Shown here piece after piece: positions 39,015 through 63,934 of a stretch of 64,000 bases of DNA (position 1 is the stretch's first letter; the number at the start of each line of letters is the position of its first letter). The notes beneath the pieces are model-generated. The model made no database searches and was not told where the DNA came from. It saw only the letters and a list, made by a program, of their open reading frames with translations. The position numbers were made by a program, and so were the translations under genes. Source of the DNA: Bacillota bacterium (GTDB taxonomy: Bacteria; Bacillota; Dethiobacteria; DTU022); assembly GCA_030611385.1 (NCBI GenBank), contig JAUWPV010000004.1:31295-95294 (forward strand), in the 5' to 3' direction.

Positions 39015-39021
39015 TTTATTT

Positions 39022-39095: not shown

Positions 39096-39101
39096 ACTAT
39101 C

Positions 39102-42268: not shown

Positions 42269-45200
42269 TTAACATTCACTGAAACCGCAGGCTTCGCACT
42301 TCAGGCATCCTTCAGCCCTGATCAGAGCACAGGTACCACAATCCGGGCATAGCTCCAGGGGATTGCTATTGTGGTTGAGAGCTTCACCATTTTCAATCTC
42401 GGCCAGTTTTCGAAGGCCCTGGCCGATGGCATCGGGAACGCTCATTATCCTGTTCGGCCCGAACCCTACCGATCGGGCGCCGCCGATACCTTCAAGCTGG
42501 GTTACGATTTCATCTACGCTTACTCCGCAGCGCAGGGCCAGTGAGATCAGGCGGGCGATTGCTTCGGTGAAGGCAACCACGTCACTGCCGGCTTTACCGA
42601 TCTGGGCGAATAGCTCAAAAGGTTTATCGTCAGCTTTATTGACAGTGACAAATAAATTACCAAGGGCTGTCCTGATGCTGGTTGTGTGGCCGCTCAATGT
42701 TTTCGGTCTTTTTGTCGGTTTGAGGTTATCCTCCTGTGATCCATCTCCGACATTGAGGACCTGTTTAGTCCGGGAACTGTCCCGGTAAATAGTGATACCC
42801 TTACAGCCTGCTTCCCAGGCAGTAATGTAAGCGTATTTAACATCGTCGATAGTGGCATCTTGTTTAAGGTTGATCGTTTTGCTGACCGCATTGTCGGTAT
42901 GTTTCTGGAAAGTTGCCTGATGCCTGACGTGCCAGCTGTAGTCAATTTCCATTGCAGTTTTAAAAAGATTCTTATACTTTTGAGGGACTACCGAATCGTC
43001 TGGTATTTTGCCGCTGCGGGCGATTTCCTGGATCAGACTTTCACTGTAAAAGCCTTCCCTTTGGGCTATTTCAAGAAAGAGGGGATTAACTTCAGGTAAA
43101 TCGAGGCCGCCCAATATATTTTTTCGGATAAAGGCAATGCTGAAGTAAGGTTCTATTCCACTGCTGGCGCTGGCGAGGATAGAAATGGTTCCGGTAGGGG
43201 CGATTGTTGTACGGGTTGCATTACGAACCCGATCTTCGGGATTTCCGTTATCGTAAATGCTGCCGCTGAAATTCGGGAAGACTCCACGCTCTTTTGCCAG
43301 GACAACTGATTCTTTTTTAGCTTCAGTGTTAATAAACTGCATCACCTTATCGGCAGTTTCAATTGCTTCTTCACTGTCGTAAGTAATCCCTAATCTGACC
43401 AGCAGATCATGCCAGCCCATAATACCCAGCCCGATTTTCCGGTTACCTTCTTTGTGCATGGCAGCGATTTCCGGAATAACATAGTTGCTGGCATCGATAA
43501 CGTTATCGAGGAAGCGGACAACAGTTTTTACAACTGCGCCCAATTTATCCCAGTCTACCTGGGAATTATTCGTAACATATTTTCCCAGATTAATAGAGCC
43601 GAGGCAGCATGCTTCATAAGGCAGCAGCGGCTGTTCTCCGCAGTTGTGGACCATAATACCGTTAGCGTCGAAGGCATTGATCCCGGGAACCTGGACGTCA
43701 TAGACTTCTTCGGTCCCATCTGGTGTCACCGTGTCAACCGTGGTCGTGAAGCGCACGCGATTTGGTTCTCGGCGGTATAATGACAGGACCGCGGTAAGGC
43801 GGCTCTTCTTCATAGTGTCGCAAAATCCGATCTGTTCTGCAAAAATCTTTAAATTATCTTTAGAGATGATCAACTCGTGTTGGGGCTTGGTTTCGTAGGT
43901 GGAGGTTCCCATTTTACCATTCGGCATCGGCTTGGTCATCTTCTCACGACGGTTTGCATAGATGGAACTGGTGATGCCGAAACGGGCCAGCATCCGCTGG
44001 ACAGCCCGGAGTCTTTCCATATCGCTCTGGGCCAACCGGATGGAAATACCCTTTTCCAGGGAGCCCTGTACAGAGCCGTCGGAATCGAAGAAACCCCTCA
44101 GGAAACCCTTGACAAAGTCTGAGGAAGTCTGGGTTTCCAGGTAGGGTGTAATGGCCTTGTTTCCCGGTTTCATGCCGAGGGAGAAGGCTACTTTCCGGAG
44201 AGTTGCGAGGCTCATTCTGCATTCATTCCTTCCGCTGACCTTCCACCAGCCTTTGAAATCACTCCGGTGGGGTAAGAACTCGGCAGCCTCGAAGGCAGCG
44301 CCCATAATGCCCGTGGTGCCTTGATTAGGCCAAACAGATAGAAGAGCCTTGTCCGATTTTAACGTTCCATCGCCTGTAAGCAGGCCGACAAAATAGCCCT
44401 CTTCATCTCCATAAAGACCGCTCCATCCGGAAAACTCGCGGTGGTCGTGAAGCATAATCTCATCTCCGGGTTTGAGATCTGCTGCATTGGCCCACTCCTT
44501 TTCAAGGGTGAATCTTGTCTTTACCTTAACCCTGAGCACGGGATGCCCACCGGTGGCACGGAATGAATAACCTTCCTTTGTCCTGATGGAAAGAAGGGGT
44601 TTGATGCCTGTTGGGAAAAAGCCGGCCTCGGTAGTCTGGAAGGGTTTTCCGTCGACGATGAGGGCGGTGCTCTTTCCGAGGAGATCCCTGACCATTCTGG
44701 GCCCATCGGCGGTCAGGATGAAGGTATCACCGGGCACGCAGGGGTTTGTGGTTTCATAGGCGCCGACGTTTGGTGTAGGGTTATATTTGTTCATCTGGTC
44801 GATTAAGATAATACCGGGATCGCCTTTTTCCCAGGCCTTTTGGATAATCAGATCAAAAACCGCTTTTGCGTCGAGTTGAATTTGGTTACCTGTTTCCGGA
44901 TCACAATAGATCTGTTTGGTGCGGGGGTTGATCAGGTAATATAATGGATCGGGATCCTCACCGGTAGCTTTTCGCATAAATTCATCTGAAACGGTGATCG
45001 ATAGATTAAAATTGTTAATTTCATCTTCGTTCTCCTTACAGCAGATAAAATCGATAACATTTGGGTGGTTATAAATCAGCGAGCCCATGTTAGCCCCGCG
45101 TCTTGTTCCACCTTGTTTTACTGCTTCAGTAGCGGTGTCAAATATTTTAAGGAATGAAAGTGGTCCACTGGCAACACCATTGGTTGACCGGACGATATCA

Positions 45201-45586
45201 TTACTTGGTCGCAGGCGATCGAAGGCGAAACCAGTACCGCCACCTGTTTTTTGGACCAGGGCCATATTCTTAAGGGTGGTAAAGATACCATCCATGCTAT
45301 CTTCCATAGGTAAGACAAAACAGGCGCTCAACTGTTGGAGTTCTCGGCCGGCGTTCATCAGGGTAGGGGAGTTAGGCATAAACTGAGTATCAGCCATAAT
45401 TTGGAAAAAGTTCTCTTCAATTGCTTTTATCTCTGCCTCATCCTTGCCGTAGTTTTTTTCAATGGCGGCAATATTGACAGCCACACGGTGCAGAAGATCT
45501 TCCGGAGTTTCGGTTGGAGCTCCTTTTTCGTCTTTGATCAGATATCTTTTTTCAAAAGTGATGCGGGCGTTAGAGCTTAATTCCAT
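42269..45586 (-). CDS. nrdJ: Adenosylcobalamin-dependent (class II) ribonucleotide reductase NrdJ, interrupted by an intein
   Basis: N-terminal RNR motifs are present (FMPNSPTLMNAG, ACFVLP, GGTRRGA). The active-site motif TNP/CGEQPL is split by a 366-aa insert. The C-terminal tail is Cys-rich. Confidence 0.9.
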   Translation of the reverse strand: MELSSNARITFEKRYLIKDEKGAPTETPEDLLHRVAVNIAAIEKNYGKDEAEIKAIEENFFQIMADTQFMPNSPTLMNAGRELQQLSACFVLPMEDSMDGIFTTLKNMALVQKTGGGTGFAFDRLRPSNDIVRSTNGVASGPLSFLKIFDTATEAVKQGGTRRGANMGSLIYNHPNVIDFICCKENEDEINNFNLSITVSDEFMRKATGEDPDPLYYLINPRTKQIYCDPETGNQIQLDAKAVFDLIIQKAWEKGDPGIILIDQMNKYNPTPNVGAYETTNPCVPGDTFILTADGPRMVRDLLGKSTALIVDGKPFQTTEAGFFPTGIKPLLSIRTKEGYSFRATGGHPVLRVKVKTRFTLEKEWANAADLKPGDEIMLHDHREFSGWSGLYGDEEGYFVGLLTGDGTLKSDKALLSVWPNQGTTGIMGAAFEAAEFLPHRSDFKGWWKVSGRNECRMSLATLRKVAFSLGMKPGNKAITPYLETQTSSDFVKGFLRGFFDSDGSVQGSLEKGISIRLAQSDMERLRAVQRMLARFGITSSIYANRREKMTKPMPNGKMGTSTYETKPQHELIISKDNLKIFAEQIGFCDTMKKSRLTAVLSLYRREPNRVRFTTTVDTVTPDGTEEVYDVQVPGINAFDANGIMVHNCGEQPLLPYEACCLGSINLGKYVTNNSQVDWDKLGAVVKTVVRFLDNVIDASNYVIPEIAAMHKEGNRKIGLGIMGWHDLLVRLGITYDSEEAIETADKVMQFINTEAKKESVVLAKERGVFPNFSGSIYDNGNPEDRVRNATRTTIAPTGTISILASASSGIEPYFSIAFIRKNILGGLDLPEVNPLFLEIAQREGFYSESLIQEIARSGKIPDDSVVPQKYKNLFKTAMEIDYSWHVRHQATFQKHTDNAVSKTINLKQDATIDDVKYAYITAWEAGCKGITIYRDSSRTKQVLNVGDGSQEDNLKPTKRPKTLSGHTTSIRTALGNLFVTVNKADDKPFELFAQIGKAGSDVVAFTEAIARLISLALRCGVSVDEIVTQLEGIGGARSVGFGPNRIMSVPDAIGQGLRKLAEIENGEALNHNSNPLELCPDCGTCALIRAEGCLKCEACGFSEC
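43643..44740 (-). mobile_element. Intein with LAGLIDADG homing-endonuclease domain inside nrdJ (aa 283-648)
   Basis: It begins CVPGDTFILT. Block B reads TGGH. The LAGLIDADG motifs read YFVGLLTGDGTL and FLRGFFDSDGSV. It ends GIMVHN, followed by the +1 Cys of CGEQPL. Confidence 0.85.
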
Positions 45587-50056: not shown

Positions 50057-50530
50057 CTATTCCATTATGTTAATATCATACCACACGTCTGAACCATCAC
50101 TCTCGATAATAACAGTTGTGGTGTTTCCGCCGGGACCGGAGGTTTCCGTTGTTGTTGCCGTTTCGGTTGTTTCAGTCGTTTGCTCAGTGGTTGTTTCTTC
50201 TTCAGGCGGGTTAACTTCGGCGGGCTGTACTGCAACACTATCTTGTCCGGAGGTATTCAGAGTTTTTAAGCCTTCAGGCTGATCTTTAAAAAAATCAACG
50301 CCGGCTGCTTGAAGAGTAATACTGGCAAACTTTAAACTACCGGGCAGTCGATCTTTTTCTCCCTGCCGGGCAATGGTTTCAATATTATTTTCGACAACTG
50401 GTTCAGTAAGAGCCTTCGCGCTGCTTCCAAAAAGAGAAGTGGAAAAAAGGAAGGCAATCAGCACTATCAAAATGCCCCACTTTTTGAACACTTTTTTCAT
50501 CTCCCCGTTCAAAAATATTTTTTTACCCAA
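50057..50530 (-). CDS. Hypothetical secreted protein with Thr/Glu-rich C-terminal half
   Basis: A signal-peptide-like N-terminus is present ([25 protein letters not shown]), followed by a [17 protein letters not shown] tract. The start is uncertain. Confidence 0.45.
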
Positions 50531-50736
50531 TGATCTTCTTAATTATAGCACAACATTCGTCAAAATAGAAAACAGAAAATTATTTTGAAAAGATACCCAA
50601 AATATTGTATGATTAAAGACGATATACGTAATTATCTGCAAAAGGAATGAAGGTGTGCCCTCTGGCTTGGCGAAGGAAACCGAAAGGCGAAACTCACGGT
50701 GCGGTAAATGGTCCCAAAACTTTTACAGGAGGCGAT

Positions 50737-51507
50737 TTGCATGTTACGCCTTCAAATCATCAGCATATCGGATCCAGGGAAAATCAGGAGGACTCCTTTG
50801 CCCTATCCGACCTGACGGACAGAAAATTGGTTGCCGAAAGCGGGGTGTTAGCATTAGTAGCCGACGGCATGGGCGGCCTTGCCCTTGGTGAAGAAGCAAG
50901 CCGGGTAGCAGTTCAGGTATTTCTTAGGGAACATCTGCTGCGTGAGTCGGATGAATCGGCTCCACAAAGACTGCATCGTGCGTTGGTGACGGCCAATGCC
51001 GCTGTTTTTGATCGTGCCTATCAAGACGGTGAGGAACTTGAGCTGGGAACAACTATGGTTGCAACGCTTGTCCACAAACGCGAACTGTACTGGATATCAG
51101 TTGGCGATAGTCGCATCTATCATTTAAGAAACAACACTTTAACACAGCTGACCAGAGACCATATCTACAAAAATCAATTAATGGATGATGTCCGCAAAGG
51201 ATTTTTAACAAAAGCGCAGGCGGAAAGCCACCCTGAAGGCGCATACTTAACCAGCTACCTGGGGCTGCTGGCACTGACTGAAATCAATAAGAACAGCGAA
51301 CCCTTACTATTAGAACCCGGAGATTGGATTTTGCTTTGCAGCGACGGTTTGTACAACTCCCTGACAGACGAGGAAATCAAACTGTTCTTAAAAAATACTG
51401 AACAAACCAGCGCTGAAAATCTGGTTAAAAGAGCACTTGCCAAGAATTTAAAACACCAGGATAATATTACAGTGGTTTTACTTTCCTGCAACTCTGTGGG
51501 TAAATAA
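50737..51507 (+). CDS. PP2C-family Ser/Thr phosphatase 1
   Basis: PP2C motifs are present: GSRENQEDSF, ADGMGG, VGDSRIY, CSDGLY and QDNITVV. The ORF opens at 50647. The TTG 50737 start is inferred from the typical PP2C N-terminal length. Confidence 0.8.
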   Translation: MHVTPSNHQHIGSRENQEDSFALSDLTDRKLVAESGVLALVADGMGGLALGEEASRVAVQVFLREHLLRESDESAPQRLHRALVTANAAVFDRAYQDGEELELGTTMVATLVHKRELYWISVGDSRIYHLRNNTLTQLTRDHIYKNQLMDDVRKGFLTKAQAESHPEGAYLTSYLGLLALTEINKNSEPLLLEPGDWILLCSDGLYNSLTDEEIKLFLKNTEQTSAENLVKRALAKNLKHQDNITVVLLSCNSVGK

Positions 51508-51530
51508 TAATGCGAAAGGGATGATCGGTG

Positions 51531-53093
51531 ATGAAAAAAAACTTAATTAGTTTTCGTGTAATCTTAGGTTTAATGGTTTTTCTCTTTATTATGATTACCT
51601 GTAGCGGATCTGTATTCGCTCAAACCAGTATTGATGATGTCAGTAAGAGCGTGGTGAGGATACAAGAAACTGGAGGTGGCCGGCTAGTAAATAGAACGGG
51701 ATTTGTTCTGGGCATAGAACCTCCCTTTCAATATGTAGCGACTACTGATGATATAGTCAGTGTGGTAAATCCAGTTTTAAATATCTGGAGGTCAAGAGAC
51801 GACCTATATCCGTGTACAGTTTATTTCAGACTTCAAGCTTCAGGAATTGTCGTCCTCAGGCTTGATCCAGACCATCAATTGCATCCATACGAACCATTAG
51901 CGCTTGGTACAAGTAGCATGATCAGCCAGGGTGACGATATGTTTGCTATCGGCTACCCCCTAAATGTGCTAACAGCCAGGAATACCGATACATCGGTAAC
52001 GAAAAGTGTTTTTAGCAGGCCACGGACAGTCGGGGGCATATTATTCTATCTTATGGCCGAAGGCTCTCTAATCAACAGGGGTATGGAAGGTGGCCCCTTG
52101 GTCAACAAAGATGGTGTTGTTATTGGTATGAATGTTTTTAATGCGGGCGGATCAGGCATATCCGGGGGTTTGGATATAGAAGCCTTGATTGATGCTCTTG
52201 AAGGACGCAACATCGATTTTATTGAAGCTGGGGAAACACCGGTGCAGCCTGGGGAAGCTACTCCTCCACCTCCTGAGCCTAAACCGCTGCCCCAGGTAAC
52301 AAGTCCACAACTGACAGCGGAAGGAATTCTCAGTTGGGATGCGGTTAGTGACGCCCAGAGCTATGAAATAGCGCTTTTCCGCGACGGACAGTTAGTTGAT
52401 TCTGTTCCGTTAGGTGCCGAATATACCAGTTTTAGCATTAGTAACGCTATTGACACTCATGGGCCCGGATCGTACACGGCCCAGGTGAAGGCTATCGGCG
52501 GTGGAGAATTTCTTGACGGCTCCCCATCACCTTCTTCTAATGTCCTTGTTGAAAAGAAAAGCATTTTCGGTATCGACCCCTTGATTCTTGGCATTGGCGG
52601 TGGCGCCTTACTACTGATAGTGCTAGCCGTTGTTTTAATTACTATGAATTCAAAGAAAGCGGCACTAGCTGTTTCTGCCGCAGCAGCTGCACAAAGAGCG
52701 CCGGCCCCTGTCACACAGGCCAAACCTAAACCACCGGTCAGCGCTCCTGTAACTAAAGCAAAGCCCTCTCTGCCCAGAGCGGGTATTAAGGGAATTTCAG
52801 GTCAGTTTGCCGGTCAAACCATCGAACTGGTCGACAACCAGTTAGTAATCGGGCGCGATCCGCGTATGGCCCAGCTGGTCTACCCGCAGTCAAATGAAGA
52901 GATCAGCAGGAAACACGTTACCATTCGCTTTGATGAAAGAACCAACAAGTTCATCCTGGAAGATTCATCTTCCAATGGAACCTTTTTATCTTCCAACCAG
53001 AAATTGGAATCGGGTAAGCCGTATTATCTAAACGCTGGCGACCGTTTTTATATTGCCGATCCCAAGGAAGTTTATGAATTGAAAATGGGGTAA
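51531..53093 (+). CDS. Transmembrane protein: signal peptide, degenerate trypsin-like (S1) domain, beta-sandwich-like domain, TM helix, cytoplasmic FHA domain
   Basis: The fold matches trypsin-2 (SVVRI, GDDMFAIGYPLN, GGPLVNKDGVVIGMN), but the catalytic triad positions read D, G and E. The transmembrane helix is LILGIGGGALLLIVLAVVLITM. The C-terminal FHA domain reads LVIGRD...ISRKHVTI...DSSSNGTFL. Confidence 0.7.
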   Translation: MKKNLISFRVILGLMVFLFIMITCSGSVFAQTSIDDVSKSVVRIQETGGGRLVNRTGFVLGIEPPFQYVATTDDIVSVVNPVLNIWRSRDDLYPCTVYFRLQASGIVVLRLDPDHQLHPYEPLALGTSSMISQGDDMFAIGYPLNVLTARNTDTSVTKSVFSRPRTVGGILFYLMAEGSLINRGMEGGPLVNKDGVVIGMNVFNAGGSGISGGLDIEALIDALEGRNIDFIEAGETPVQPGEATPPPPEPKPLPQVTSPQLTAEGILSWDAVSDAQSYEIALFRDGQLVDSVPLGAEYTSFSISNAIDTHGPGSYTAQVKAIGGGEFLDGSPSPSSNVLVEKKSIFGIDPLILGIGGGALLLIVLAVVLITMNSKKAALAVSAAAAAQRAPAPVTQAKPKPPVSAPVTKAKPSLPRAGIKGISGQFAGQTIELVDNQLVIGRDPRMAQLVYPQSNEEISRKHVTIRFDERTNKFILEDSSSNGTFLSSNQKLESGKPYYLNAGDRFYIADPKEVYELKMG

Positions 53094-53099
53094 ATAAAG

Positions 53100-53828
53100 A
53101 TGATCATACACGCTGCGCTTCTATCGAAAACGGGCGGCAGAAAAGTTAACGAAGACTTTTGCTGCTATGATGAAAAGAGTGGTTTTGGCTGCTATATCTT
53201 GGCGGATGGTCTAGGCGGCCACAAGGGCGGAGCACTGGCTTCGAGGACAATCGGAGAAGCGGTAATAGAGGCTTTTACTGCTTCTCCGGGTTTCTCAGCT
53301 ATAAAGCTTATTGAATATGTAGAATATGCCCGCCGCTCCTTTCTGGCGGCCCGTATAGAAACTCATGAGCATAAAAGCATGAAAGCAACCCTTGTCCTTT
53401 TATTAACCGATGGACATAGTGCCCTCTGGGGGCATATTGGGGACTCTCGTCTCTATTATTTTCACGCAGGCAATTTATTATTTCAGACAAAGGACCATAG
53501 TGTGCCGCAGTTGCTGGCAGACAGCGGCGAAATTAAAGAGGATCAGATTCGTTTTCACGAAGATCGCAACCGCCTGACTGCAGCTTTCGATGGCGAAGAG
53601 TTGGTGCGCTTTACTATTCCGGAAAAACCAGTAGAGTTAAATTCAGGTGATGCTTTTTTGCTTTGTAGCGACGGATTTTGGGAGTATCTGACTGAACCAG
53701 AGATGGTATCCGTTTTGAAGCGGGCCGACAAGTCGGAACAGTGGCTCGCCGAAATGGAAAATATGCTACTGGATCGCGCGGAAACCGGGCACGACAATTA
53801 TTCGGCCCTGGCGGTAATCATTGAATGA
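53100..53828 (+). CDS. PP2C-family Ser/Thr phosphatase 2
   Basis: PP2C motifs are present: GGRKVNEDF, ADGLGGH, IGDSRLYYF, CSDGFWEY and GHDNYS. Confidence 0.85.
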   Translation: MIIHAALLSKTGGRKVNEDFCCYDEKSGFGCYILADGLGGHKGGALASRTIGEAVIEAFTASPGFSAIKLIEYVEYARRSFLAARIETHEHKSMKATLVLLLTDGHSALWGHIGDSRLYYFHAGNLLFQTKDHSVPQLLADSGEIKEDQIRFHEDRNRLTAAFDGEELVRFTIPEKPVELNSGDAFLLCSDGFWEYLTEPEMVSVLKRADKSEQWLAEMENMLLDRAETGHDNYSALAVIIE

Positions 53829-53892
53829 TCCAGCTTGATTGGTTGAGATATTTGGTCTTCTAAAAATATACTGCATTGGAGGGAACCGGACA

Positions 53893-54447
53893 ATGGAGGC
53901 GTTAACGAGGTGCAATAATGGTCATTATTTTGACTCAAAGAAACATTCATCGTGTCCGTTTTGTGGCGTGCAAGACCTTGAGATAAACATTAATAAAACA
54001 ATGGCCAAGAGACCCGGCAAATCTGGATCGCGAGGTGGTGAAGAGGGCAAGACTGTGGGCATCTACAAGAGAAAGCTTGGCATTGACCCGGTTGTCGGCT
54101 GGCTGGTAGCGATAACAGGCCCGGAAAAAGGGCGTGACTTTCGTATAACTGCTGAAAAAAACTTTATCGGTCGGTCGGAAAAAATGGATATTAGGATACC
54201 TGATGACGAGTCGATATCGAGAGATAGCCATGCCGTGGTCAGTTTTAACCCTAAAAATTTGACATTTCGCCTCTTCCCCGGCGAAAGCAAAGGCTTGGCT
54301 TACCTTAATGGAGAAGAAGTGATCGCTCCCGTAGTCCTAAAAGCTTATGATACTATTGAAGTTGGTCAAACCAAGCTGATATATATACCATTATGCAGCG
54401 AAAGCTTTCATTGGGATATGGTTAAAGGAGAAGGCGAGCAGAACTGA
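53893..54447 (+). CDS. Cytoplasmic zinc-ribbon + FHA domain protein
   Basis: The N-terminus carries C..GH...CPFCG. The FHA domain reads NFIGRSEKMDIRI...ISRDSHAVV...GLAYLNG. Confidence 0.75.
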   Translation: MEALTRCNNGHYFDSKKHSSCPFCGVQDLEININKTMAKRPGKSGSRGGEEGKTVGIYKRKLGIDPVVGWLVAITGPEKGRDFRITAEKNFIGRSEKMDIRIPDDESISRDSHAVVSFNPKNLTFRLFPGESKGLAYLNGEEVIAPVVLKAYDTIEVGQTKLIYIPLCSESFHWDMVKGEGEQN

Positions 54448-54506
54448 TTGCGTTAAAAGTTATGACAGGGAGAGAAATGATAAAGAGAATATTTGAGGTG
54501 AAGCAG

Positions 54507-55697
54507 ATGCGAAAGAAACTGTTTTCTTTGCTTACGGTGATTTTATTCATTCTGATATTCCCTGCATCCCTTGTTCTTGCGCAGCTTGTCGTGCCTGTAA
54601 CCGGTGTCACTCTGGATCACGCTAATCTGATTTTGGAGCGCGGAGATGCGGATGTTTTAATAGCTACGGTTCAACCGGTCAAGGTAACAAGTAAGACAGT
54701 AAGTAATGCAACAAATGCAAACATTTTTTGGACATCGAGCGATCCCGGTGTTGTTGATGTGCAATCCAGCGGGCCCTCAACTGCGGCTATAAGTGCGTTA
54801 ACGGCAGGAACAGCTACCATAACAGTAACTACCGTAGATGGTGGCAAAATTGCAACCTGTGTTGTTCAAGTAGTTGTCTCGATGCGCAGTTTAAGTTTGG
54901 ATGTAAATGAAACCACGCTGGCTCCGGGTGATGAACTAATCCTGAATGCCAAAATAATCCCGGCAGATACTACCAACCAGTTGGTTACCTGGCAGTCGAC
55001 AAACCCGGGTATTGCTTCGGTAGTTGAAGTTGACCCGGCCAGAACGGCCGCTCGCAACCCGCAGGGGAAAGTTACCGTCCACAGTGAAGGCGAGACCAGA
55101 ATCATCGTTCGCTCAGTACAGAATAATAGCATAACGGCATTTTGCACAGTTACTGTTTCGTCTTCCGCGCCACCGGTTACCGACACAGATCAACCCCTGC
55201 CTGCTGTTTCCGAACCGGAACAGGTTGATCAGAACGCCCCGGTGATCGATGATCAAACGACGGAAAGATCTGCTATCAGCAGCACTATTTACGTCTTGAT
55301 TGGCCTCGGTGCTGTTTTACTGTTAGCTGTTCCTTTGGTCTATTTGATCAATCGAAACAGGCAGGCCGCATTTATCCCGGCAGCTGGAATTAAAGGTATT
55401 TCCGGCCACTTTGCCGGGCAAACCTTTAAACTGGTTAAAGGAAAGCTAATCTTTGGCCGCGATGCAGTAGAAGCTCAAATCGCTTACCCTCAATCTAACA
55501 GTCAAATTAGCAGGAAGCATTGTACTCTTAGCTACGATCGTGCCGGTAATAGTTTTATACTAATTGATTCATCCACTAACGGTACTTTTCTTTCGACTGG
55601 TGAGAGATTGATATCAGGCAAGCCATATATCTTGAAATCGGGCGATAAATTCTATATGGCTGATCCCAAAGAACTATTTGAAATCAGGCCAGGTTAA
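54507..55697 (+). CDS. Transmembrane protein: signal peptide, two Big_2-like Ig domains, TM helix, cytoplasmic FHA domain
   Basis: Two repeats have Big_2 features (VTGVTL...ATVQP...WTSSDPGVVDV...GTATITVTT, and a second copy). The transmembrane helix is IYVLIGLGAVLLLAVPLVYLI. The C-terminal FHA domain is paralogous to that of 51531-53093. Confidence 0.75.
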   Translation: MRKKLFSLLTVILFILIFPASLVLAQLVVPVTGVTLDHANLILERGDADVLIATVQPVKVTSKTVSNATNANIFWTSSDPGVVDVQSSGPSTAAISALTAGTATITVTTVDGGKIATCVVQVVVSMRSLSLDVNETTLAPGDELILNAKIIPADTTNQLVTWQSTNPGIASVVEVDPARTAARNPQGKVTVHSEGETRIIVRSVQNNSITAFCTVTVSSSAPPVTDTDQPLPAVSEPEQVDQNAPVIDDQTTERSAISSTIYVLIGLGAVLLLAVPLVYLINRNRQAAFIPAAGIKGISGHFAGQTFKLVKGKLIFGRDAVEAQIAYPQSNSQISRKHCTLSYDRAGNSFILIDSSTNGTFLSTGERLISGKPYILKSGDKFYMADPKELFEIRPG

Positions 55698-55869
55698 GGT
55701 GATTAAAATAGAATTAACTTATTTAGGCATGGGCTGAATAGAGGGGGCCATTCCGGATTCACCTTACGGATAGGTTCGCGGTGACTAGACGGCCAGGGTG
55801 GTTGTTTTCAGGCTTAGAAGATATTCTGCGATTGTGTTCTAACGATACTGCTTGAGTGGAGTGATCTAA

Positions 55870-57951
55870 TTGGAGCTAACTGATTTGTGTATGGGTTGTA
55901 TGGAAGAGAATGTTAACCAGGTAGCCGAGTGTCCGCAATGCGGTTGGGTTGAGGGAACCGAACCTGCTTCGCCGCTGTTTCTGCCACCGCGGACAGTCTT
56001 GGAAGGCAAATACCTGATTGGCCGCGTCCTTGGACAAGGTGGCTTTGGTATTACCTACCTGGCTTGGGATATCAACCTGAATATTAAGCTGGCTATTAAA
56101 GAATTTTTTCCGCAGGATTTGGCCTCGCGGGCAGCCGGGCACAGCCAGGTATCCGCATATTCAGGCAGCATGGGTAGTCAGTATGATTACGGTCTCGATA
56201 AATTTTTACAGGAAGCACGGACTCTTGCCCAGTTTGAGGGGCATCCAAACATTGTATCCGTGCGCGATTTCTTTAAGGCAAACGGTACTGCCTATTTCGT
56301 AATGAGTTATGTAGATGGCATTACCCTGAAAGATCACCTGGCCAATTCAAGCGGTAAATTGCCGATTGATCAGGCCCGGGGTATCATTATGCCGGTGCTC
56401 GATGCTTTAAAAGAAGTCCACAAGGTTAATGTTTTGCACCGTGATATCAGCCCTGACAACATCTTTATTAATCAAAAAGGACAGGTCATTTTAATCGACT
56501 TTGGAGCCGCCCGCCAGGCGATCGGCGAAAAAGGGAGAAGTTTGTCGATTATTCTTAAACCAGGCTACGCTCCTGAAGAGCAGTACCGCAGTAAAGGAGT
56601 TCAGGGACCCTGGACCGATATTTATGCTGTCGGAGCCACTTTATTTCATCTGGTAACCGGTCAGCAACCCCCTGAGGCATTGGAACGACTGGTTGAAGAT
56701 TCAATGCAATCACCATCGGAACTTGGAGCCGTCCTAAGTGAGAATGAAGAGTTGGCTTTATATAAAGCTCTCGCCGTCCGCGCTGGTGATCGTTTCCAGA
56801 CAGTTGAGGAATTCCAGGCGGCACTAATGGGCGAACAGGCATCTTTTATTATTACCGCTCCGATACCGACCGCTCCAGCTGCAACCGATAGAGCGGGAGT
56901 ACCGGCTGCCAGGAAAAAAAGGCCTTTAGGGCTGATTGCTGGTTTCGCTGCTGTTGTTATTATCGGTGCTGCCTTATATGCGCTATGGGCCGGAGGTTTA
57001 CTCAATGACTGGATAGCGGCAACTACAGGAGAACCCCTGGAAGAGGTAGAAGAAATTGTTGACGAGCTTGAGCCAGAAGTTATCCTGGCAGTTAACAGTG
57101 AAGGCAATACAGCCGGCAATCTGGTCAATGGTGGTCTGGCGACAGTCCAGGGAGACTGGATTTATTTTCGCAGCAACGAGGGTGGCAGCCTCTATAAGGG
57201 AAATCTTGCCAGTGGGGGCGGAGCTAAAATAGTTAGCACTGATGCTGCCTGGTTCATCAATGTGTCCGGAGATTGGGTCTACTATAGCAATCGCGATGAT
57301 GATAACCGCTTATATAAGATTAAGATCGATGGCAGTGATCGGACTGCTTTAACCGAAGGCGGAGCCTGGTTTGTTACTTTGGTAAATGATTGGATTTATT
57401 ACATCAATGAGGCAGACGATTATCGTCTTTACAAAATCAGTGTCGACGGCAGCGGCAGAACTAAAATTAGCGATGATACTGCCTGGTATGTCAATGTAGT
57501 CGACGAGTGGATTTACTATATCAACAGCAGCGATGGTGATAAAATCTACCGTATAAAAACCGATGCCAGTGAGAGGACTCAAATTAGCGATTATGCTGCC
57601 GACTGCATCAATGTCTATGGTGATTGGATTTACCATACCAACGAAGCCGACGGTTCAAAGCTCTATAAAATCCGCCTTGATGGCAGTGACAGGATCGAGA
57701 TAACTGACCACTCTGCCTGGTTCATAAATGTTTATGACGATTGGATCTACTATGTTAGCGAGGATGATGATTTTACTTTATACAAGATTAAACTGGATGG
57801 AAGCGGGAGGACAAAACTGACCAATGAACCGACCCGTTATGTGGTTGTGGCTGAGGACTGGATTATTTATCTCGATCAGGCTGAAGAAGATACTATCTAC
57901 AAGATTCGTCTTGACGGTACCGCTAATAGCTACATTGAGAGCGGGTTTTAG
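55870..57951 (+). CDS. Hanks-type Ser/Thr protein kinase with N-terminal zinc ribbon, TM helix and extracytoplasmic 7-repeat (DUF5050-like) propeller
   Basis: The N-terminus carries CMGC...CPQCG. Kinase motifs are LGQGGFGITY, LAIKEF, HRDISPDN, DFGAA and GYAPEE. The transmembrane helix is LGLIAGFAAVVIIGAALYALWAG. Seven DWIYY...LYKI..DGS.RT repeats follow. Confidence 0.85.
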   Translation: MELTDLCMGCMEENVNQVAECPQCGWVEGTEPASPLFLPPRTVLEGKYLIGRVLGQGGFGITYLAWDINLNIKLAIKEFFPQDLASRAAGHSQVSAYSGSMGSQYDYGLDKFLQEARTLAQFEGHPNIVSVRDFFKANGTAYFVMSYVDGITLKDHLANSSGKLPIDQARGIIMPVLDALKEVHKVNVLHRDISPDNIFINQKGQVILIDFGAARQAIGEKGRSLSIILKPGYAPEEQYRSKGVQGPWTDIYAVGATLFHLVTGQQPPEALERLVEDSMQSPSELGAVLSENEELALYKALAVRAGDRFQTVEEFQAALMGEQASFIITAPIPTAPAATDRAGVPAARKKRPLGLIAGFAAVVIIGAALYALWAGGLLNDWIAATTGEPLEEVEEIVDELEPEVILAVNSEGNTAGNLVNGGLATVQGDWIYFRSNEGGSLYKGNLASGGGAKIVSTDAAWFINVSGDWVYYSNRDDDNRLYKIKIDGSDRTALTEGGAWFVTLVNDWIYYINEADDYRLYKISVDGSGRTKISDDTAWYVNVVDEWIYYINSSDGDKIYRIKTDASERTQISDYAADCINVYGDWIYHTNEADGSKLYKIRLDGSDRIEITDHSAWFINVYDDWIYYVSEDDDFTLYKIKLDGSGRTKLTNEPTRYVVVAEDWIIYLDQAEEDTIYKIRLDGTANSYIESGF
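57151..57948 (+). repeat. Seven tandem ~117-nt (39-codon) coding repeats in the kinase ectodomain
   Basis: The protein repeats each contain (G/D)DWIYY, then LYKI, then DGS.RT. The last copy is shorter. Confidence 0.75.
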
Positions 57952-59498: not shown

Positions 59499-61079
59499 AT
59501 GAAACATTTCTTAGCCGAAGATTCCGGAAGTATTCGCGAAAAAGTGATCATCCTTGATTTTGGCGGGCAGTACAGTATGCTCATCGCCAGAAGAATCAGG
59601 GAAGCGGGCGTCTACTGCGAACTACTACCATATAACACTTCCTGGATGCAAATAGAAAAAAGTAAGCCAGCCGGTATTATTCTGTCTGGCAGTCCGGCCA
59701 GTGTCAACCAGGAGCATGCTCCGTCCTGTGATCCGGCAATTTTTAAGGGAGGCATCCCCATATTGGGCATTTGCTACGGGATGCAGCTCTTGGCGAAAGA
59801 AATGGGCGGAGAGGTTGAAAGGGGTATCCGCTCTGAGTTCGGTCGAACCTCGTTTGCTATAGTCGAAGCTGAGCCGTTCTTTAAAGACGATTTTTTTCAG
59901 GAAGAAAGCGCCTGCTGCTGTTGGATGAGTCATCAGGACGAAGTTATCAAATCTCCTCCGGGTTTCAACGTACTGGCTCGGACTGAAAATAATACCATAG
60001 CTGCTATTGGCGATCATCAAAAGAAAATCTATGGGCTACAATTTCACCCCGAAGTATTCCATACTCCCGGTGGTAGATATATCCTGAAGAATTTCTTATT
60101 TGACGTCTGCGGTTGTAATCGTACCTGGACCCCCCAAAGTTTTGTTGAAGACGCCGTTGAAAAAATTACTGAAATAATCGGAGAAGATCAAAAAGTAGTC
60201 TGCGCTCTCAGTGGTGGAGTCGATTCATCGGTAGTGGCGTTCCTGCTTGATCGTGCGGTTGGCGAAAGAGCCGTCTTCATCTTTGTTGATCACGGTTTAC
60301 TGCGGTTAGAAGAAGCAAAACAGGTTGTGGAGCTTTACAACGAACGGTTGAAAGGGCAGTTTATTCATGTTAATGCAAAAGAGCGGTTTTTGAGTTCACT
60401 GGCCGGAGTTACCGATCCGGAAGAAAAGCGAAGGATTATCGGCGCTGAGTTTATAAATGTTTTCAAGGATAAAGCCCTCTCGATGGGCGACATTACCTAT
60501 CTGGCCCAGGGCACAATTTACCCGGATGTCATTGAAAGCGGTTCGGTTTACGGCGCAGCCGTTATCAAAACGCACCACAATGTGGGTGGTTTGCCGGAAG
60601 AACTGGGTTTTAAACTGATCGAACCACTGCGGGAACTATTCAAGGATGAAGTGCGCCTGGTCGGCGCAGAACTGGGCTTGCCTGGTTCAGTTTTGAAGAG
60701 ACAGCCTTTTCCGGGGCCTGGTCTGGCCGTTCGTATAATTGGAGAGGTTACCGATGAAAAACTTTCTTTACTACAGCAGGCTGATGCTATCTTCCGGGAA
60801 GAGGTTCTGCAAGCAGGATTGTCTGAAGAATTGTGGCAGTATTTTGCAGTGCTGACAGATGTTCAGGTAGTTGGAGTAAAAGGAGACGATCGCCATTACG
60901 GACCGGTTATTGCCCTGAGAGCTGTTGTTTCAGAAGATGCCATGACTGCAGACTGGGCCCGCCTACCCCACGATTTGCTAGAGAAAGCTTCGATGCGTAT
61001 TACCGGGGAAATATCGAAAGTAGCCCGGGTAGTTTACGATATTACCTCAAAACCCCCCGGTACCATTGAGTGGGAGTAA
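59499..61079 (+). CDS. guaA: GMP synthase (glutamine-hydrolysing)
   Basis: GATase motifs are present (GICYGMQ, QFHPE). The PP-loop reads SGGVDSSV. The C-terminus reads PPGTIEWE. Confidence 0.95.
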   Translation: MKHFLAEDSGSIREKVIILDFGGQYSMLIARRIREAGVYCELLPYNTSWMQIEKSKPAGIILSGSPASVNQEHAPSCDPAIFKGGIPILGICYGMQLLAKEMGGEVERGIRSEFGRTSFAIVEAEPFFKDDFFQEESACCCWMSHQDEVIKSPPGFNVLARTENNTIAAIGDHQKKIYGLQFHPEVFHTPGGRYILKNFLFDVCGCNRTWTPQSFVEDAVEKITEIIGEDQKVVCALSGGVDSSVVAFLLDRAVGERAVFIFVDHGLLRLEEAKQVVELYNERLKGQFIHVNAKERFLSSLAGVTDPEEKRRIIGAEFINVFKDKALSMGDITYLAQGTIYPDVIESGSVYGAAVIKTHHNVGGLPEELGFKLIEPLRELFKDEVRLVGAELGLPGSVLKRQPFPGPGLAVRIIGEVTDEKLSLLQQADAIFREEVLQAGLSEELWQYFAVLTDVQVVGVKGDDRHYGPVIALRAVVSEDAMTADWARLPHDLLEKASMRITGEISKVARVVYDITSKPPGTIEWE

Positions 61080-61107
61080 CGACAAGTAAAGTTGAATTTA
61101 TATATAT

Positions 61108-61140
61108 AACTCTTGCTAAATGAAGAATTTAGCAAGAGTT
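61108..61140 (+). terminator. Perfect 14-bp inverted repeat after guaA (terminator-like hairpin without a clear U-tract)
   Basis: AACTCTTGCTAAAT (61108-61121) and ATTTAGCAAGAGTT (61127-61140) flank the loop GAAGA. Confidence 0.5.
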
Positions 61141-61267
61141 ATTGTGATAGAAAGACATGTGAGAATTTACCCGCAAAAAATAATTGGAAGCTACTACCAT
61201 CTGTAGTATAATAAAGCAACGACATCTATACATGTTGTTACTTTGTCTTTTAATCGGGGGAATAGAT

Positions 61268-63895
61268 ATGATATTTAACTTCAATGAAAAAAATGTACCA
61301 CCTCTATCACAAATAGGCGGCAAGGCAAAGGCGTTGATTGAAACAACAAAAGTAGGATTTCCAGTTCCTGATGGTATTGCTCTATCTGTAGAATTTTTTG
61401 ATGAGTGGTTCAAAGTGGTCAAAACATCCAGTGAGTTTAAAATAGCCATCAAAGATGTTACAAATAAAAATTGTGAAGCTGTTAAGACTCTGGCAGAAAA
61501 TATGAAATTTACAAGCGTACAAAAATCGGCTTTTGATAGTGCAATAAAGGACGTAGACAGCAAGCTTTTTGCAGTTCGTTCATCATCTCCAGAAGAGGAT
61601 TTAAAGGGAACATCTTTTGCAGGAATGTATGAAACATTTTTAGGGACACCTTATGATAAGTTAGAAGAAAACACAGCGAAGGCATTTGCATCCTGCTTCG
61701 ACTTTCGTGTATTGGAGTATAAGAATCAAAATAATATAGATTTACATAATACTAGTATTGCAGTAATTGTACAAAAACAAATAGCGTCCGATGTCAACGG
61801 GATAGGCTTTTCACTAAATCCATTGAATAATGATTATGACGAAGCTGTTATTAATGCGAATTTTGGTTTGGGTGAATCTGTTGTATCTGGTACAGTTACA
61901 CCTGATCAGTTTATTGTAAGTAAGGTCAATAATGAAATCATAGATAAGACGTTGGGTGGTCATGAAGTTGTTATAAACATTGGAGCCGCTGGTGGTGTTA
62001 CCCATGATAAACCCAAAAGTAAAAAATTTTCGCTTAGCGATGAAAAGGTTATTGAAGTTGCAAATATTATTGCAAAAATCGAAGAGTTTTATGGCTTCCC
62101 CGTGGATATTGAGTGGGCATATGAAGAGAAAAATCTTTATATACTTCAAGCAAGACCTATTACAGCATTTATTTCTCTTGAACCCCATATGATGACAAAA
62201 TCTGGAGAAAGACGAATGCTATATTTTGATGCAAACTTAGTCGATTCACTTACTAGCAATGTACCCATATTACCGCTGACCATAGATTGGTTTTATGATG
62301 CTTTTATGATGTTTACAGGACCATTATTTGGTGATGCAACTCTTAATGGGCATTTACCTCCTAAAGAGGGATTGGTCTTTTGTGGTAATGGACGTGTATA
62401 TATAAATATGTCACAGATTTTGCATCTTATTAAGCTTGACAAACTAATGGCTGCAGGGGAGCAGGCAGATAAGCAAATTGTTGAAATATCAAAAAATATT
62501 GATTCGAAAAAATACAAGATGGAAAATCCATTGTCTTACCTTAAACTTGGGTTTTTGATAAGAAAATCACCAAGGGTGATGTGGAATTCTCGTAGGCTTA
62601 TCAGTAAATCAATGAAGGCATATTTTTGCCCAAACAAATTTTATGATAAAGATTTTAAGCCAAATGTGGATCGAGTAATTGAAAAACTAAAATCTGATGC
62701 TTATAAAGATATACCCCTGGCTCAAATTACAACAAAAATAGATAAAGATATAGATAATGTTTTGTTCACCTATGGTTTTGCAGCCATTATCCCATTAATG
62801 GTTGCATTGGATAAAATCCCTAAGCTGGTCAAGGATGGTACGGATGAAATGGATGAACTGGCAGATGATATCTTCCTGGGCACTGAGGATAATGAGTCCA
62901 TTGAGATGGGTATTTCCATGTTTCATATGGCGAAGCTTCTAAAAAAATCCGACTTTGACGATTTGGATGTTTTGGCAAAGAAAATTGAAGATAAAAATAT
63001 GAGTGATGAGTTTTTGTTGCTTTGGGATAAGTTTATTTCAACGTACAAATTTAGAGGTCCAAATGAACTGGAGCTAAGTAATTACCGGTATGGAGATAAT
63101 CCTCAATTAGCGTTGCAACAGATGTCATACATGGTGGACAGTGAATACAATCCAGAGCAATCTCAGAAACAGAATATTCAAAAGCGTGAGAGGGCTTATG
63201 AAATATTATGTAGTAAGCTGAAAGGGCGAAAGCTTAAACAGTTTAAGATTAATTATGCGGTAGCGTCTTTATATGCAACAGCAAGAGATACACCAAAGTA
63301 TATTTGGCTGCTGGAAAATGGAATAGTTCGTCAAAGAGCATTGTTTGAAGGCAGTGGTCTTGTTGATGATGGTCATTTGGATGAAAAAGAGGACATATTC
63401 TTTTTGTACTTTAAAGAGGTTGAAAAAGCTCAAAACGGAGATGATATTGATCTTAAAAAAATCGTTTCTGAGCGAAAGGTGCTTTATGAAAAGCTTGACA
63501 GAATTGACTCATATCCACTATTTATTGACTCGCGTGGGAATATTCCTGCTGCTAAGGTTGATGCAGTGGATGAAGACTCATTTAAAGGGCATGGTATTTC
63601 TCGTGGGGTAAAGACCGGACGAATTAAGGTTATGAAAAACCCAACAGAAAAGCCTATTGAAAAAGGTGATATCTTGGTTACCTATACCACAGATCCGGGT
63701 TGGACACCTCTTTTTGTAAATGCAGAAGCTATTATCCTGCAAGTCGGTGGACCGCTTCAGCATGGCGGGGTTGTTGCTCGTGAATATGGCAAACCTTGTG
63801 TGGTTGGGATTGCGAGCGTTTATGATAAATTCCACGATGGTCAATTAGTTGAAGTTAATGGTACAAATGGCCTAGTTAGGATTATTAAGGAATAG
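61268..63895 (+). CDS. PEP-utilizing enzyme with rifampin-phosphotransferase-like architecture (N-terminal PPDK_N ATP-grasp, long middle region, C-terminal His swivel domain)
   Basis: The N-terminus reads LSQIGGKAKALIETTKVGFPVPDG...FAVRSSSPEEDL...SFAGMYETF. The C-terminus reads GDILVTYTTDPGWTPLF...GGPLQHGGVVAREYGKPCVVG. ATG 61268 lies 8 nt after GGGGGA. Confidence 0.7.
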   Translation: MIFNFNEKNVPPLSQIGGKAKALIETTKVGFPVPDGIALSVEFFDEWFKVVKTSSEFKIAIKDVTNKNCEAVKTLAENMKFTSVQKSAFDSAIKDVDSKLFAVRSSSPEEDLKGTSFAGMYETFLGTPYDKLEENTAKAFASCFDFRVLEYKNQNNIDLHNTSIAVIVQKQIASDVNGIGFSLNPLNNDYDEAVINANFGLGESVVSGTVTPDQFIVSKVNNEIIDKTLGGHEVVINIGAAGGVTHDKPKSKKFSLSDEKVIEVANIIAKIEEFYGFPVDIEWAYEEKNLYILQARPITAFISLEPHMMTKSGERRMLYFDANLVDSLTSNVPILPLTIDWFYDAFMMFTGPLFGDATLNGHLPPKEGLVFCGNGRVYINMSQILHLIKLDKLMAAGEQADKQIVEISKNIDSKKYKMENPLSYLKLGFLIRKSPRVMWNSRRLISKSMKAYFCPNKFYDKDFKPNVDRVIEKLKSDAYKDIPLAQITTKIDKDIDNVLFTYGFAAIIPLMVALDKIPKLVKDGTDEMDELADDIFLGTEDNESIEMGISMFHMAKLLKKSDFDDLDVLAKKIEDKNMSDEFLLLWDKFISTYKFRGPNELELSNYRYGDNPQLALQQMSYMVDSEYNPEQSQKQNIQKRERAYEILCSKLKGRKLKQFKINYAVASLYATARDTPKYIWLLENGIVRQRALFEGSGLVDDGHLDEKEDIFFLYFKEVEKAQNGDDIDLKKIVSERKVLYEKLDRIDSYPLFIDSRGNIPAAKVDAVDEDSFKGHGISRGVKTGRIKVMKNPTEKPIEKGDILVTYTTDPGWTPLFVNAEAIILQVGGPLQHGGVVAREYGKPCVVGIASVYDKFHDGQLVEVNGTNGLVRIIKE

Positions 63896-63934
63896 ATATA
63901 TGGACACATCTCCAAAGAAAGTGACAGGGGACGG

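Follow-up and report, generated by a model that had tools for sequence, protein, structure and literature searches.

Signalling by bacterial Hanks-type kinases, PP2C phosphatases and FHA domain proteins is known from few cases, those of mycobacterial PknB with FhaA, FhaB and GarA, and of PpkA with Fha in type VI secretion. The system for type VI secretion (T6SS) is, as described, a Gram-negative one (PMC3953482). In Agrobacterium, type VI secretion is activated when Fha binds phosphorylated Thr14 of TssL, a membrane protein that is a substrate of PpkA (PMC3953482). Within the Bacillota, novel variants of the type VII secretion system (T7SSc-j) often carry membrane kinases, PPM phosphatases and separate FHA proteins that are encoded together, and a DUF5050 propeller protein, TsgL, occurs in T7SSg; these variants are defined by two components of the locus, an FtsK-like ATPase (EssC/EccC) and a WXG100 protein (PMC11217815). 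Here we describe a cluster at positions 50647-57951 of a stretch of 64,000 nucleotides from a Bacillota bacterium (contig JAUWPV010000004.1; the whole stretch is called the window below). It consists of six co-directional open reading frames (ORFs) on the + strand, which encode two PP2C phosphatases (g1 and g3), three FHA proteins (g2, g4 and g5) and one receptor Hanks kinase (g6).

We give about an even chance to the reading that the cluster is a self-contained, membrane-anchored phosphothreonine module, which would use the logic of type VI threonine phosphorylation, unattached to a secretion machine, and would assemble FHA-tailed surface proteins. The parts are familiar; the arrangement is widespread and uncharacterised. 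It forms a conserved, apparently unstudied module in many Bacillota, including cultivable Bacillaceae, and gut Lachnospiraceae and Intestinimonas have related forms. Its design is unusual in that an extracytoplasmic HtrA-type protease, or a dead copy of one, is joined to a predicted cytoplasmic phosphothreonine reader, as is the case in at least 57 of the 115 top representatives of the family of FHA-tailed proteins to which g2 and g5 belong.

The six proteins of the cluster

The intergenic gaps are 6-172 nucleotides once the starts of g4 (53893) and g5 (54507) have been corrected; these starts are taken from public gene calls on the identical contig (run SRR12623521) and are confirmed by orthologue alignments. 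With them, the layout given in a preliminary description of this DNA, six co-directional genes with gaps of that size, is borne out, and every one of the domain assignments that it made for the six proteins is supported by Pfam. Annotation drew on Pfam, NCBIfam, PADLOC and Rfam, on sequence matches to the PDB, on Foldseek, and on an AlphaFold model of g2, for which the confidence measure quoted is the predicted local distance difference test (pLDDT). The genes, and the parts of their products that are discussed below, including transmembrane (TM) helices, are as follows.

50647..51507, + strand: g1, PP2C phosphatase 1, 286 amino acids (284 in the public call); PP2C_2, E 1.9e-19
51528..53093, + strand: g2, type I membrane protein; Trypsin_2, E 3.4e-11; FHA, E 1.6e-11
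51651..52205, + strand: g2 HtrA/trypsin-like domain, residues 42-226; Trypsin_2, and HtrA1 by Foldseek
52326..52553, + strand: g2 second ectodomain, an all-beta sandwich, residues 267-342; AlphaFold, pLDDT 93-97, strands only
52578..52643, + strand: g2 TM helix, residues 351-372; AlphaFold
52647..52766, + strand: g2 disordered cytoplasmic linker, residues 374-413; AlphaFold, pLDDT below 50
52707-52724, + strand: PVTQAK in the g2 linker, candidate phospho-acceptor or FHA-docking site
52746-52763, + strand: PVTKAK in the g2 linker, candidate phospho-acceptor or FHA-docking site
52779..53087, + strand: g2 FHA domain, residues 418-520; GR (442-443), SRKH (460-463), SNGT (482-485)
53100..53828, + strand: g3, PP2C phosphatase 2, 242 amino acids; PP2C_2, E 3.6e-14; starts 6 nucleotides past the g2 stop
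53893..54447, + strand: g4, cytoplasmic zinc-ribbon-FHA protein, 184 amino acids; FHA, E 1.8e-7; a TTG at 53839 is a possible earlier start of the ORF
Within 53893..54447, + strand: g4 zinc ribbon RCNNGHYFDSKKHSSCPFCG, residues 6-25; sequence motif
Within 53893..54447, + strand: g4 conserved KTMAKR, residues 35-40, and GKTVGIY, residues 52-58; orthologue alignment
54507..55697, + strand: g5, type I membrane protein, 396 amino acids; Big_2, E 2.8e-14; FHA, E 9.7e-13; the ORF could extend back to 54462
55870..57951, + strand: g6, receptor Hanks kinase, 693 amino acids; Pkinase, E 1.7e-33; DUF5050, E 3.8e-67
Within 55870..57951, + strand: g6 zinc ribbon CxxC...CxxC, residues 7-25; motif
56008-56829, + strand: g6 kinase domain, PpkA-type, residues 47-320; PDB match and motifs
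56437-56460, + strand: g6 catalytic loop HRDISPDN, residues 190-197; sequence
Within 55870..57951, + strand: g6 TM helix, residues 353-378
57106-57906, + strand: g6 extracellular seven-repeat DUF5050 (LRP1-like) beta-propeller, residues 413-679; Pfam

From its sequence, g6 appears to be an intact PpkA-type receptor kinase with an extracellular propeller. It keeps GQGGFG, AIK, HRD, DFG (residues 210-212) and APE, and in the translation the propeller consists of seven WIY-type repeats at a spacing of about 39 residues. The best PDB match of the kinase domain is PpkA (5hnv), with 197.8 bits and an E of 2.6e-57 over residues 47-317, and the next is PknB, with 93 bits. The two proteins, g6 and PpkA, are alike in an HRDIS-x-DN catalytic loop (HRDISLDN in PpkA), where the usual Lys is Ser, and, on our reading of the alignment, in an insert between strand beta-3 and helix C. 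The PASTA kinase model NF033483 gives g6 153.7 bits against a cut-off of 450, and Pfam finds no PASTA domain in it. Amongst the 96 kinases of related loci, which are described below, 92 have the N-terminal CxxC...CxxC zinc ribbon, and an HRD[IV][ST]PxN loop together with DFG was detected in 79. The Lys of HRDxKxxN is nearly universal in Ser/Thr kinases. In each of the 79 cluster kinases with a detected loop (loci L003-L067), Ser or Thr stands in its place, and this change in the catalytic loop may mark a distinct kinase subfamily.

The two phosphatases, g1 and g3, are likewise predicted to be intact PP2C enzymes. Their PP2C_2 scores are 70.5 and 53.3 bits (Pfam cut-off 24), and the (N/Q)ED, DGxGG, GDSR, SDG and DN motifs are kept in both, as had been claimed of their metal-binding motifs: QED47, DGMGG73, GDSR153, SDGL232 and DNI272 in g1, and NED17, DGLGG36, GDSR114, SDGF190 and DNY232 in g3. 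Neither reaches the Stp1/IreP equivalog of NCBIfam (168 and 149.6 against 230). Both match PppA (6jkv) at an E of ~1e-19 to 1e-20, and PstP and tPphA match equally well or better, so that no particular preference for PppA is seen. At its N-terminus g1 has a basic extension of ~40 residues. In the Bacillaceae loci L032, L034-L036 and L039, the first PP2C has a hydrophobic, TM-like N-terminal segment (e.g. WWGYLIILGI) at the place where the extension in Dethiobacteria is short and polybasic. Membrane anchoring of the first phosphatase is a possibility.

The assignment of three FHA proteins is supported by the Pfam profiles, with scores of 44.9, 31.9 and 48.8 bits against a cut-off of 20.7. The G-R, S-x-x-H and N-G residues are present in all three domains, and across 80 homologues of g2 the residues G-R, S-x-x-H and N-G-T are invariant or nearly so. 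Thus, the FHA domains of g2, g4 and g5 carry the residues for phosphothreonine binding, and the predicted readers look functional. In g4 these residues lie in GR, SRDSH and LNGEE, and the protein ends in a conserved CSESFHW; the zinc-ribbon-FHA family to which it belongs is strongly conserved from Dethiobacteria to Bacillaceae, with a shared C-terminal FxPxCxExFxW tail. The order in g5 is a signal peptide, two Big_2 domains, a TM helix (residues 264-281), a short linker and an FHA tail (FGRD, SRKH and TNGT). Between g2 and g5, the FHA tails share 61% of 106 aligned residues and the ectodomains are unrelated, in agreement with an earlier hand count of 63 identities in 103 positions. A profile of this tail matches 1090 cluster representatives at E <= 1e-10 amongst 1.84 billion proteins. 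In nearly all of them the FHA domain is C-terminal and follows a signal peptide, an ectodomain and one TM helix. Pfam finds Trypsin_2 in 57 and Big_2 in 24 of the 115 top representatives, others being multi-pass membrane proteins, and the names given in the source are generic (‘trypsin-like peptidase domain-containing protein’, ‘FHA domain-containing protein’). By the topology predicted for the cluster, the HtrA-like, Big_2 and propeller domains lie outside the cell, and the FHA domains and the linkers with Thr motifs are cytoplasmic.

In the AlphaFold model of g2 (mean pLDDT 87), a helix is followed by an HtrA-like domain, a beta-sandwich, a TM helix, a linker and the FHA domain. The first helix (residues 4-39) is a signal or anchor helix, and the beta-sandwich has no Pfam match. 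The HtrA-like domain scores 44.5 bits with Trypsin_2 (Pfam cut-off 27.6) and resembles HtrA1 in a Foldseek comparison (E 4.5e-12, target TM-score about 0.75). Its catalytic triad, the columns of which were read by alignment to HtrA1 (GNSGGP) and from a table of orthologue columns, has been replaced: His by Asp in TTDDIV (residues 72-77), Asp by Gly in SGIVVL (residues 105-110) and Ser by Glu in GMEGGP (residues 185-190). The triad is likewise lost in the seven closest homologues, which are 47-83% identical and in which the three positions read DGE, DRA, DNE or NNE. Amongst 32 more distant orthologues that were examined, including those of Contubernalis, Tindallia, Syntrophomonas and Bacillus, His-Asp-Ser is intact in 31, and the other one has Arg-Asp-Ser. 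A motif scan of the best 150 family representatives found the active-site Ser kept in 55 of the 59 proteins with a recognisable motif. The ectodomain of g2 therefore reads as an HtrA-like pseudoprotease, dead only in this subclade, and we infer that the protease was turned into a non-catalytic binding or scaffold domain in this lineage. Because the triad is intact in nearly all of the more distant orthologues and lost only here, the ancestral trypsin-like ectodomain resembles an effector more than it does a sensor that binds a ligand. The preliminary description had proposed that two of the FHA adaptors carry extracellular ligand-binding modules; the extracellular domains are there, and for g2 the ligand-binding role seems not to be the ancestral one.

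Recurrence of the gene set in other genomes

One genome per species was scanned with FHA-tail patterns derived from an eight-sequence alignment, which gave 62 loci; their ORFs, with flanks of 10 kb, were annotated by phmmer with the domains of the window as queries. The genes for PP2C, trypsin-TM-FHA protein and PP2C occur in that order in 31 of the 62 loci, and in 22 the triplet is followed directly by the zinc-ribbon-FHA gene. By a looser criterion, a minimum of two FHA proteins, a PP2C and a kinase inside 10 kb, the number is 45. The gene order is conserved in dozens of species-level genomes and is not the product of chance, and the co-occurrence of the genes as a unit elsewhere, which had been set as a test of the first proposal, is found.

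The core order, PP2C / trypsin-TM-FHA / PP2C / zinc-ribbon-FHA / kinase, spans several classes of Bacillota and is also that of loci in Dethiobacteria, Anoxynatronum, Tindallia and Syntrophomonas, the Dethiobacteria carriers being soda-lake metagenome-assembled genomes (MAGs) that are often labelled Syntrophomonadaceae. In Bacillaceae (Bacillus dakarensis, Cytobacillus eiseniae, Robertmurraya and Fredinandcohnia) and in Intestinimonas, the PP2C / trypsin-FHA / PP2C triplet is kept and the other genes are rearranged; the kinase of the Bacillaceae version has a PASTA domain and TPR repeats. The variant in Lachnospiraceae is related and has, in addition, a vWA-TM-FHA protein and a fusion of kinase and FHA, and the eight loci of Cohnella have a lone FHA protein only. 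In the Lachnospiraceae/Intestinimonas clusters the vWA-FHA protein was seen, for example, at 11817-13643 of locus L040 and at 8014-9534 of L044.

The closest relatives of the g6 kinase are mostly metagenomic, and the named ones come from Dethiobacteria, from Clostridia bacterium MAGs and from Candidatus Contubernalis alkaliaceticus. A syntenic metagenome locus has, between glnA and guaA, genes for PP2C, trypsin-FHA protein, zinc-ribbon-FHA protein, a kinase with FHA and MORN, Big_2 protein, PP2C and a DUF5050 kinase. The complete genome of Contubernalis (CP054699.1) has PP2C, trypsin-FHA, PP2C, zinc-ribbon-FHA, kinase-FHA-MORN, Big_2-FHA and kinase-MORN genes, and its DUF5050 kinase stands alone elsewhere. 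Many relatives thus have an extra kinase gene between the zinc-ribbon-FHA and Big_2 genes (L004, 6361-8295; L006, 6895-8802; L009, 11704-13275), which by Pfam carries FHA and MORN in L004 and L006 and is annotated only as a kinase in L009; the cluster of the window and its closest relative, L007, are without it. The ectodomains themselves are swapped amongst paralogous kinases that have about 70% identical kinase domains, DUF5050, MORN, GYF_2, beta-helix, Big_2 and PASTA with TPR repeats all being found. The six-gene form thus appears to be a reduced version, with a DUF5050 ectodomain that is interchangeable. The one-kinase module with a DUF5050 kinase that was first proposed is indeed present here; it does not hold as a general form, as many relatives have a second kinase.

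Swapping of ectodomains, both on the kinases and on the FHA tails, is also seen in conflict systems, and a surface-sensing kinase that triggers a response to attack, by phage or by other bacteria, would be the corresponding explanation. PADLOC offers matches of the kinase to PD-T4-6 and mad6 and of g3 to the candidate PDC-M21C (E 9e-17). These are generic kinase and PP2C matches, however, with none for g1, g4 or g5 and no defined system matched; no nuclease, toxin or other effector is encoded in the cluster, which lies in a syntenic position among housekeeping genes and has a GC (guanine plus cytosine) content that resembles that of its neighbours. Defence is the least probable of the explanations that we considered. 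A relation to vWA/MoxR conflict systems was rejected, as the window cluster has no vWA, MoxR or effector genes.

All-against-all clustering of the ORFs in the 62 loci revealed no other family that adjoins the core and is shared across lineages. This argues that the module is self-contained, as had been claimed for it; its gene set is inherited as a unit. The clustering also bears on the suggestion that some secretion or surface machine with genes in another part of the genome, for example a type VII variant, a Tad pilus or sortase-dependent pili, has the cluster as its accessory switch at the post-translational level, in parallel to PpkA-PppA-Fha in type VI secretion. The homology of the kinase to PpkA is consistent with such a role, as is the frequent presence of kinases, PPM phosphatases and FHA proteins in type VII variants. 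In Anoxynatronum and in one locus of Dethiobacteria, moreover, the first PP2C gene is directly preceded by one of the sortase family (L017, 7122-7952; L019, 7204-8016; L013, 175-780). On the other side, no gene of a type VI, type VII (EssC/FtsK-type ATPase or WXG100) or pilus system was found among the scanned ORFs of the window (20 of the 36 large ORFs in 1-46000, together with the cluster flanks), no such family recurs beside the core in the 62 loci, and the ectodomain-bearing membrane proteins of the module could themselves be the output. We consider a switch for a distant machine decidedly unlikely.

The flanks of the cluster suggest another explanation. Upstream lie the gene of an intein-containing ribonucleotide reductase, pyrG, the gene of an ANTAR protein and glnA, and downstream purF, guaA and a gene for a phosphoenolpyruvate (PEP)-utilising enzyme. 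In the manner of GarA and OdhI, g4 might thus bind the neighbouring glutamine-dependent enzymes (those of glnA, pyrG, purF and guaA) and control nitrogen or nucleotide metabolism. The nearest solved relatives of g4 by sequence are GarA/Rv1827, weakly (E 0.002-0.007), NCBIfam has a weak match to OdhI, its Thr motifs lie upstream of the FHA domain as in GarA, and the glnA/pyrG and purF/guaA synteny recurs in five related Dethiobacteria loci. The metabolic neighbours are absent, however, from every locus outside that subgroup, including Ca. Contubernalis; the OdhI equivalog NF041660 gives g4 21 bits against a cut-off of 200; and the membrane FHA proteins would be left unexplained. A functional link to glnA, pyrG, purF and guaA was rejected because the synteny is confined to a Dethiobacteria subgroup, and metabolic control through g4 seems to us very improbable.

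Candidate phosphosites and a proposed mode of action

In the linkers of the trypsin-FHA proteins, which are disordered and join the TM helix to the FHA domain, PVT[QKR]A[KR] is present once, twice or three times; the PVTxAK repeats were not seen in the linkers of Bacillaceae. Counted over 37 orthologous linkers, TxA[KR] occurs 39 times, against 3.4 +/- 1.8 times (maximum 10) in composition-preserving shuffles; the sequences being related, this comparison does not amount to a true probability. In most orthologues of g4, from Dethiobacteria to Bacillaceae, the zinc ribbon is followed by KT[MV]AK, and GKT[VM]G[IV] stands close in front of the FHA core. The FHA proteins are probably substrates as well as adaptors, because they have these conserved Thr motifs of their own. 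The role of adaptor first proposed for all three is consistent with their FHA domains, and is probably only part of what they do. The conserved Thr motifs offer phosphosites that can be tested directly.

On this basis, the module would work as follows. A signal at the propeller would activate the PpkA-type kinase, which would then phosphorylate Thr residues in the PVTxAK repeats of g2 and in KTMAK and GKTVGI of g4, and probably also itself. The FHA domains of g2, g5 and g4 would bind the resulting phosphothreonines, mostly in trans, and the FHA-tailed surface proteins, possibly with the kinase, would be drawn into a phosphorylation-dependent membrane assembly, which the two PP2Cs would dissolve. 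Both recruitment by phosphorylation and the binding of ligands are what we infer. The GarA/OdhI-like build of g4 suggests by analogy that it may act as a soluble competitor or switch. The output would be the clustering or the activity state of the ectodomains, and hence a cell-surface function rather than transcription; it would be an HtrA-type protease in most relatives and a non-catalytic domain here, in addition to the Big_2 surface domains. The ectodomains are favoured as the output because no downstream gene is conserved and because most relatives keep the triad of the extracellular protease. Control of a surface protease or adhesin by phosphorylation inside the cell would, if true, add a new mode of surface regulation in Gram-positive cells.

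Several observations weigh against this scheme. A basic residue at +3 is not a typical preference of FHA domains. In the linkers of g5-type proteins, which are short, a Thr motif was looked for and is absent. The activation loop in the sequence of g6 has Ser but no Thr, and the juxtamembrane region of the kinase is poorly conserved. The shuffle test ignores the relatedness of the sequences, and the Thr motifs could be conserved for reasons unrelated to phosphorylation. Lastly, the likeness of the FHA domains to TagH and of the phosphatases to PppA is found only at the level of domains.

A more far-reaching version of the phosphothreonine module can also be put forward, which we regard as unlikely. 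The clusters would then represent a new type of Gram-positive transmembrane signalling, in which HtrA, Big_2 and vWA ectodomains are wired through FHA domains and PVTxAK motifs, and in which head-to-tail polymerization by FHA-phosphothreonine contacts, controlled by kinase and PP2C, would build a surface array and give inside-out control of proteolysis or adhesion. The type VI pathway would be a specialized offshoot of this broader and older module.

Genomic surroundings and comparison with known systems

A promoter-like site lies 34 nucleotides upstream of g1:

50585..50613, + strand: TTGAAA, a 17-nucleotide spacer and TATGAT; consensus match only

It is a possible promoter of the operon by this match; the number of promoter-like sites across the region is not above that expected from shuffled sequence. 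A scan for promoters and terminators gave nothing convincing within the cluster, inspection of the 172-nucleotide spacer between g5 and g6 revealed nothing of note, and Rfam has no RNA element in or adjoining the cluster. Between glnA and g1, at 50057-50530 on the - strand, lies an ORF of 157 amino acids (144 in the public call). Its N-terminus is hydrophobic and its tail rich in Thr and Glu; neither Pfam nor PADLOC has a match for it, and the related locus L004 has no called gene at the corresponding position. The ribonucleotide reductase gene (42269-45586, - strand) encodes a large subunit of 1105 amino acids with an intein and, by Pfam, a LAGLIDADG homing endonuclease. Further away, control of arginine synthesis through tRNA sensing is suggested by a T-box leader (25377-25629, + strand; 108.8 bits) that stands directly 5' of the genes for argininosuccinate synthase (25661-26932) and argininosuccinate lyase (26977-28326). 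There are tRNA genes in a group of five at 38777-39186 (+ strand) and singly at 17095-17178 (- strand). The genes of a DUF5317 protein (39301-39864, - strand) and of an HD_5 (HD-GYP-type) protein (39925-41274, - strand) lie side by side; the latter protein has the membrane sensor domain MASE9, and the two may be a pair related to cyclic-di-GMP. Over 60001-64000 the GC content falls from ~0.47 to 0.37-0.41 across the gene resembling that of a PEP-utilising enzyme (61184-63895), which may have been acquired horizontally.

The claim that the cluster matches no characterised system has held up in the searches that were made: none of the NCBIfam equivalogs describes it, PADLOC defines no system that it matches, and the papers searched, which exclude most subscription journals, describe neither the cluster nor PpkA-like kinases outside the T6SS nor protease-FHA fusions. 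Single components invite comparison with well-studied proteins. The ectodomain of g2 has the chymotrypsin-like fold of HtrA, DegP and DegS; it differs from these proteases in having no PDZ domain, in being anchored in the membrane with a cytoplasmic FHA domain, and in the replacement of all three catalytic residues. Like GarA and OdhI, g4 is small and soluble, with conserved Thr motifs upstream of its FHA domain, whereas its N-terminal zinc ribbon and conserved Cys-containing C-terminal tail are features that GarA lacks, and its Thr motifs (KTMAK and GKTVGI) are different.

The T7SSc-j variants come from the same phylum and have the same set of kinase, PPM phosphatase and FHA proteins, although the FHA proteins described there (with DUF6382) have another architecture. 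An association with type VII secretion was considered because DUF5050 and kinases co-occur in the type VII paper. It was rejected, as genes for EssC and WXG100 were not found nearby; YukD-like, EssC-type ATPase and WXG100 genes adjoin the cluster neither in the window nor in the 62 related loci.

The actinobacterial fhaA-fhaB(fipA)-pstP-rodA-pbpA-pknA-pknB locus, which the preliminary description had used as its comparator, is also an operon that joins FHA proteins, PP2C and receptor Hanks kinases, and the small FhaB/FipA, a TM helix with an FHA domain, has the layout of the g2 and g5 tails. Control of envelope growth or division, with the FHA proteins recruiting cell-wall or divisome proteins encoded elsewhere, might therefore be envisaged here too. 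It is generally known that HtrA-type proteases act in envelope quality control, the PASTA and TPR domains of the Bacillaceae-version kinase point in the same direction, and the FhaB/FipA equivalog NF049868 gives a weak match to g2 (32.6 bits, with TM helix and FHA domain covered) and g4 (25.2 bits), both far below its cut-off of 125. However, the cluster contains no rodA/ftsW or pbp gene, as was noted at the outset, none lies around it in the window, and none is conserved beside the core in the 62 related loci. The cluster also lacks an FhaA-type (DUF3662) protein, its FHA proteins have large ectodomains, and its kinase is PpkA-like rather than PknB-like and is without PASTA domains. On balance we consider envelope control unlikely. 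The difference from the actinobacterial locus that was originally drawn thus holds, and it is the choice of comparator that has to be revised.

The type VI threonine phosphorylation pathway appears to be the nearest known system, rather than the actinobacterial locus, because the kinase of the cluster is PpkA-like. There are clear differences between the two. The cluster is found in Bacillota hosts; no TssA-M, Hcp or VgrG context was found for it, the neighbours scanned in the window being metabolic or housekeeping genes and no conserved family standing beside the core in the 62 loci. It has two PP2Cs and three FHA proteins where the type VI pathway has one of each, its FHA domains form part of single-pass proteins whose ectodomains are HtrA-like or Big_2, and its kinase carries a zinc ribbon at the N-terminus as well as a DUF5050 propeller. 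Of the NCBIfam models, TagH (TIGR03354) fits the FHA domains of g2 and g5 best; they match it below the cut-off of 120.25 (37 and 33.4 bits) and only in the FHA domain (profile positions 21-94 of 420). A vWA domain is present on PpkA of P. aeruginosa, and the vWA-FHA proteins of the Lachnospiraceae/Intestinimonas clusters are a further point of likeness. What the two systems have in common is the three-part logic of a PP2C, an FHA protein and a Hanks kinase that sits in the membrane and has an extracytoplasmic domain, together with a kinase domain for which PpkA is the nearest solved relative by a wide margin and which shares the HRDIS-x-DN loop. If the phosphothreonine module is as proposed here, it would provide an evolutionary context for the type VI secretion switch.

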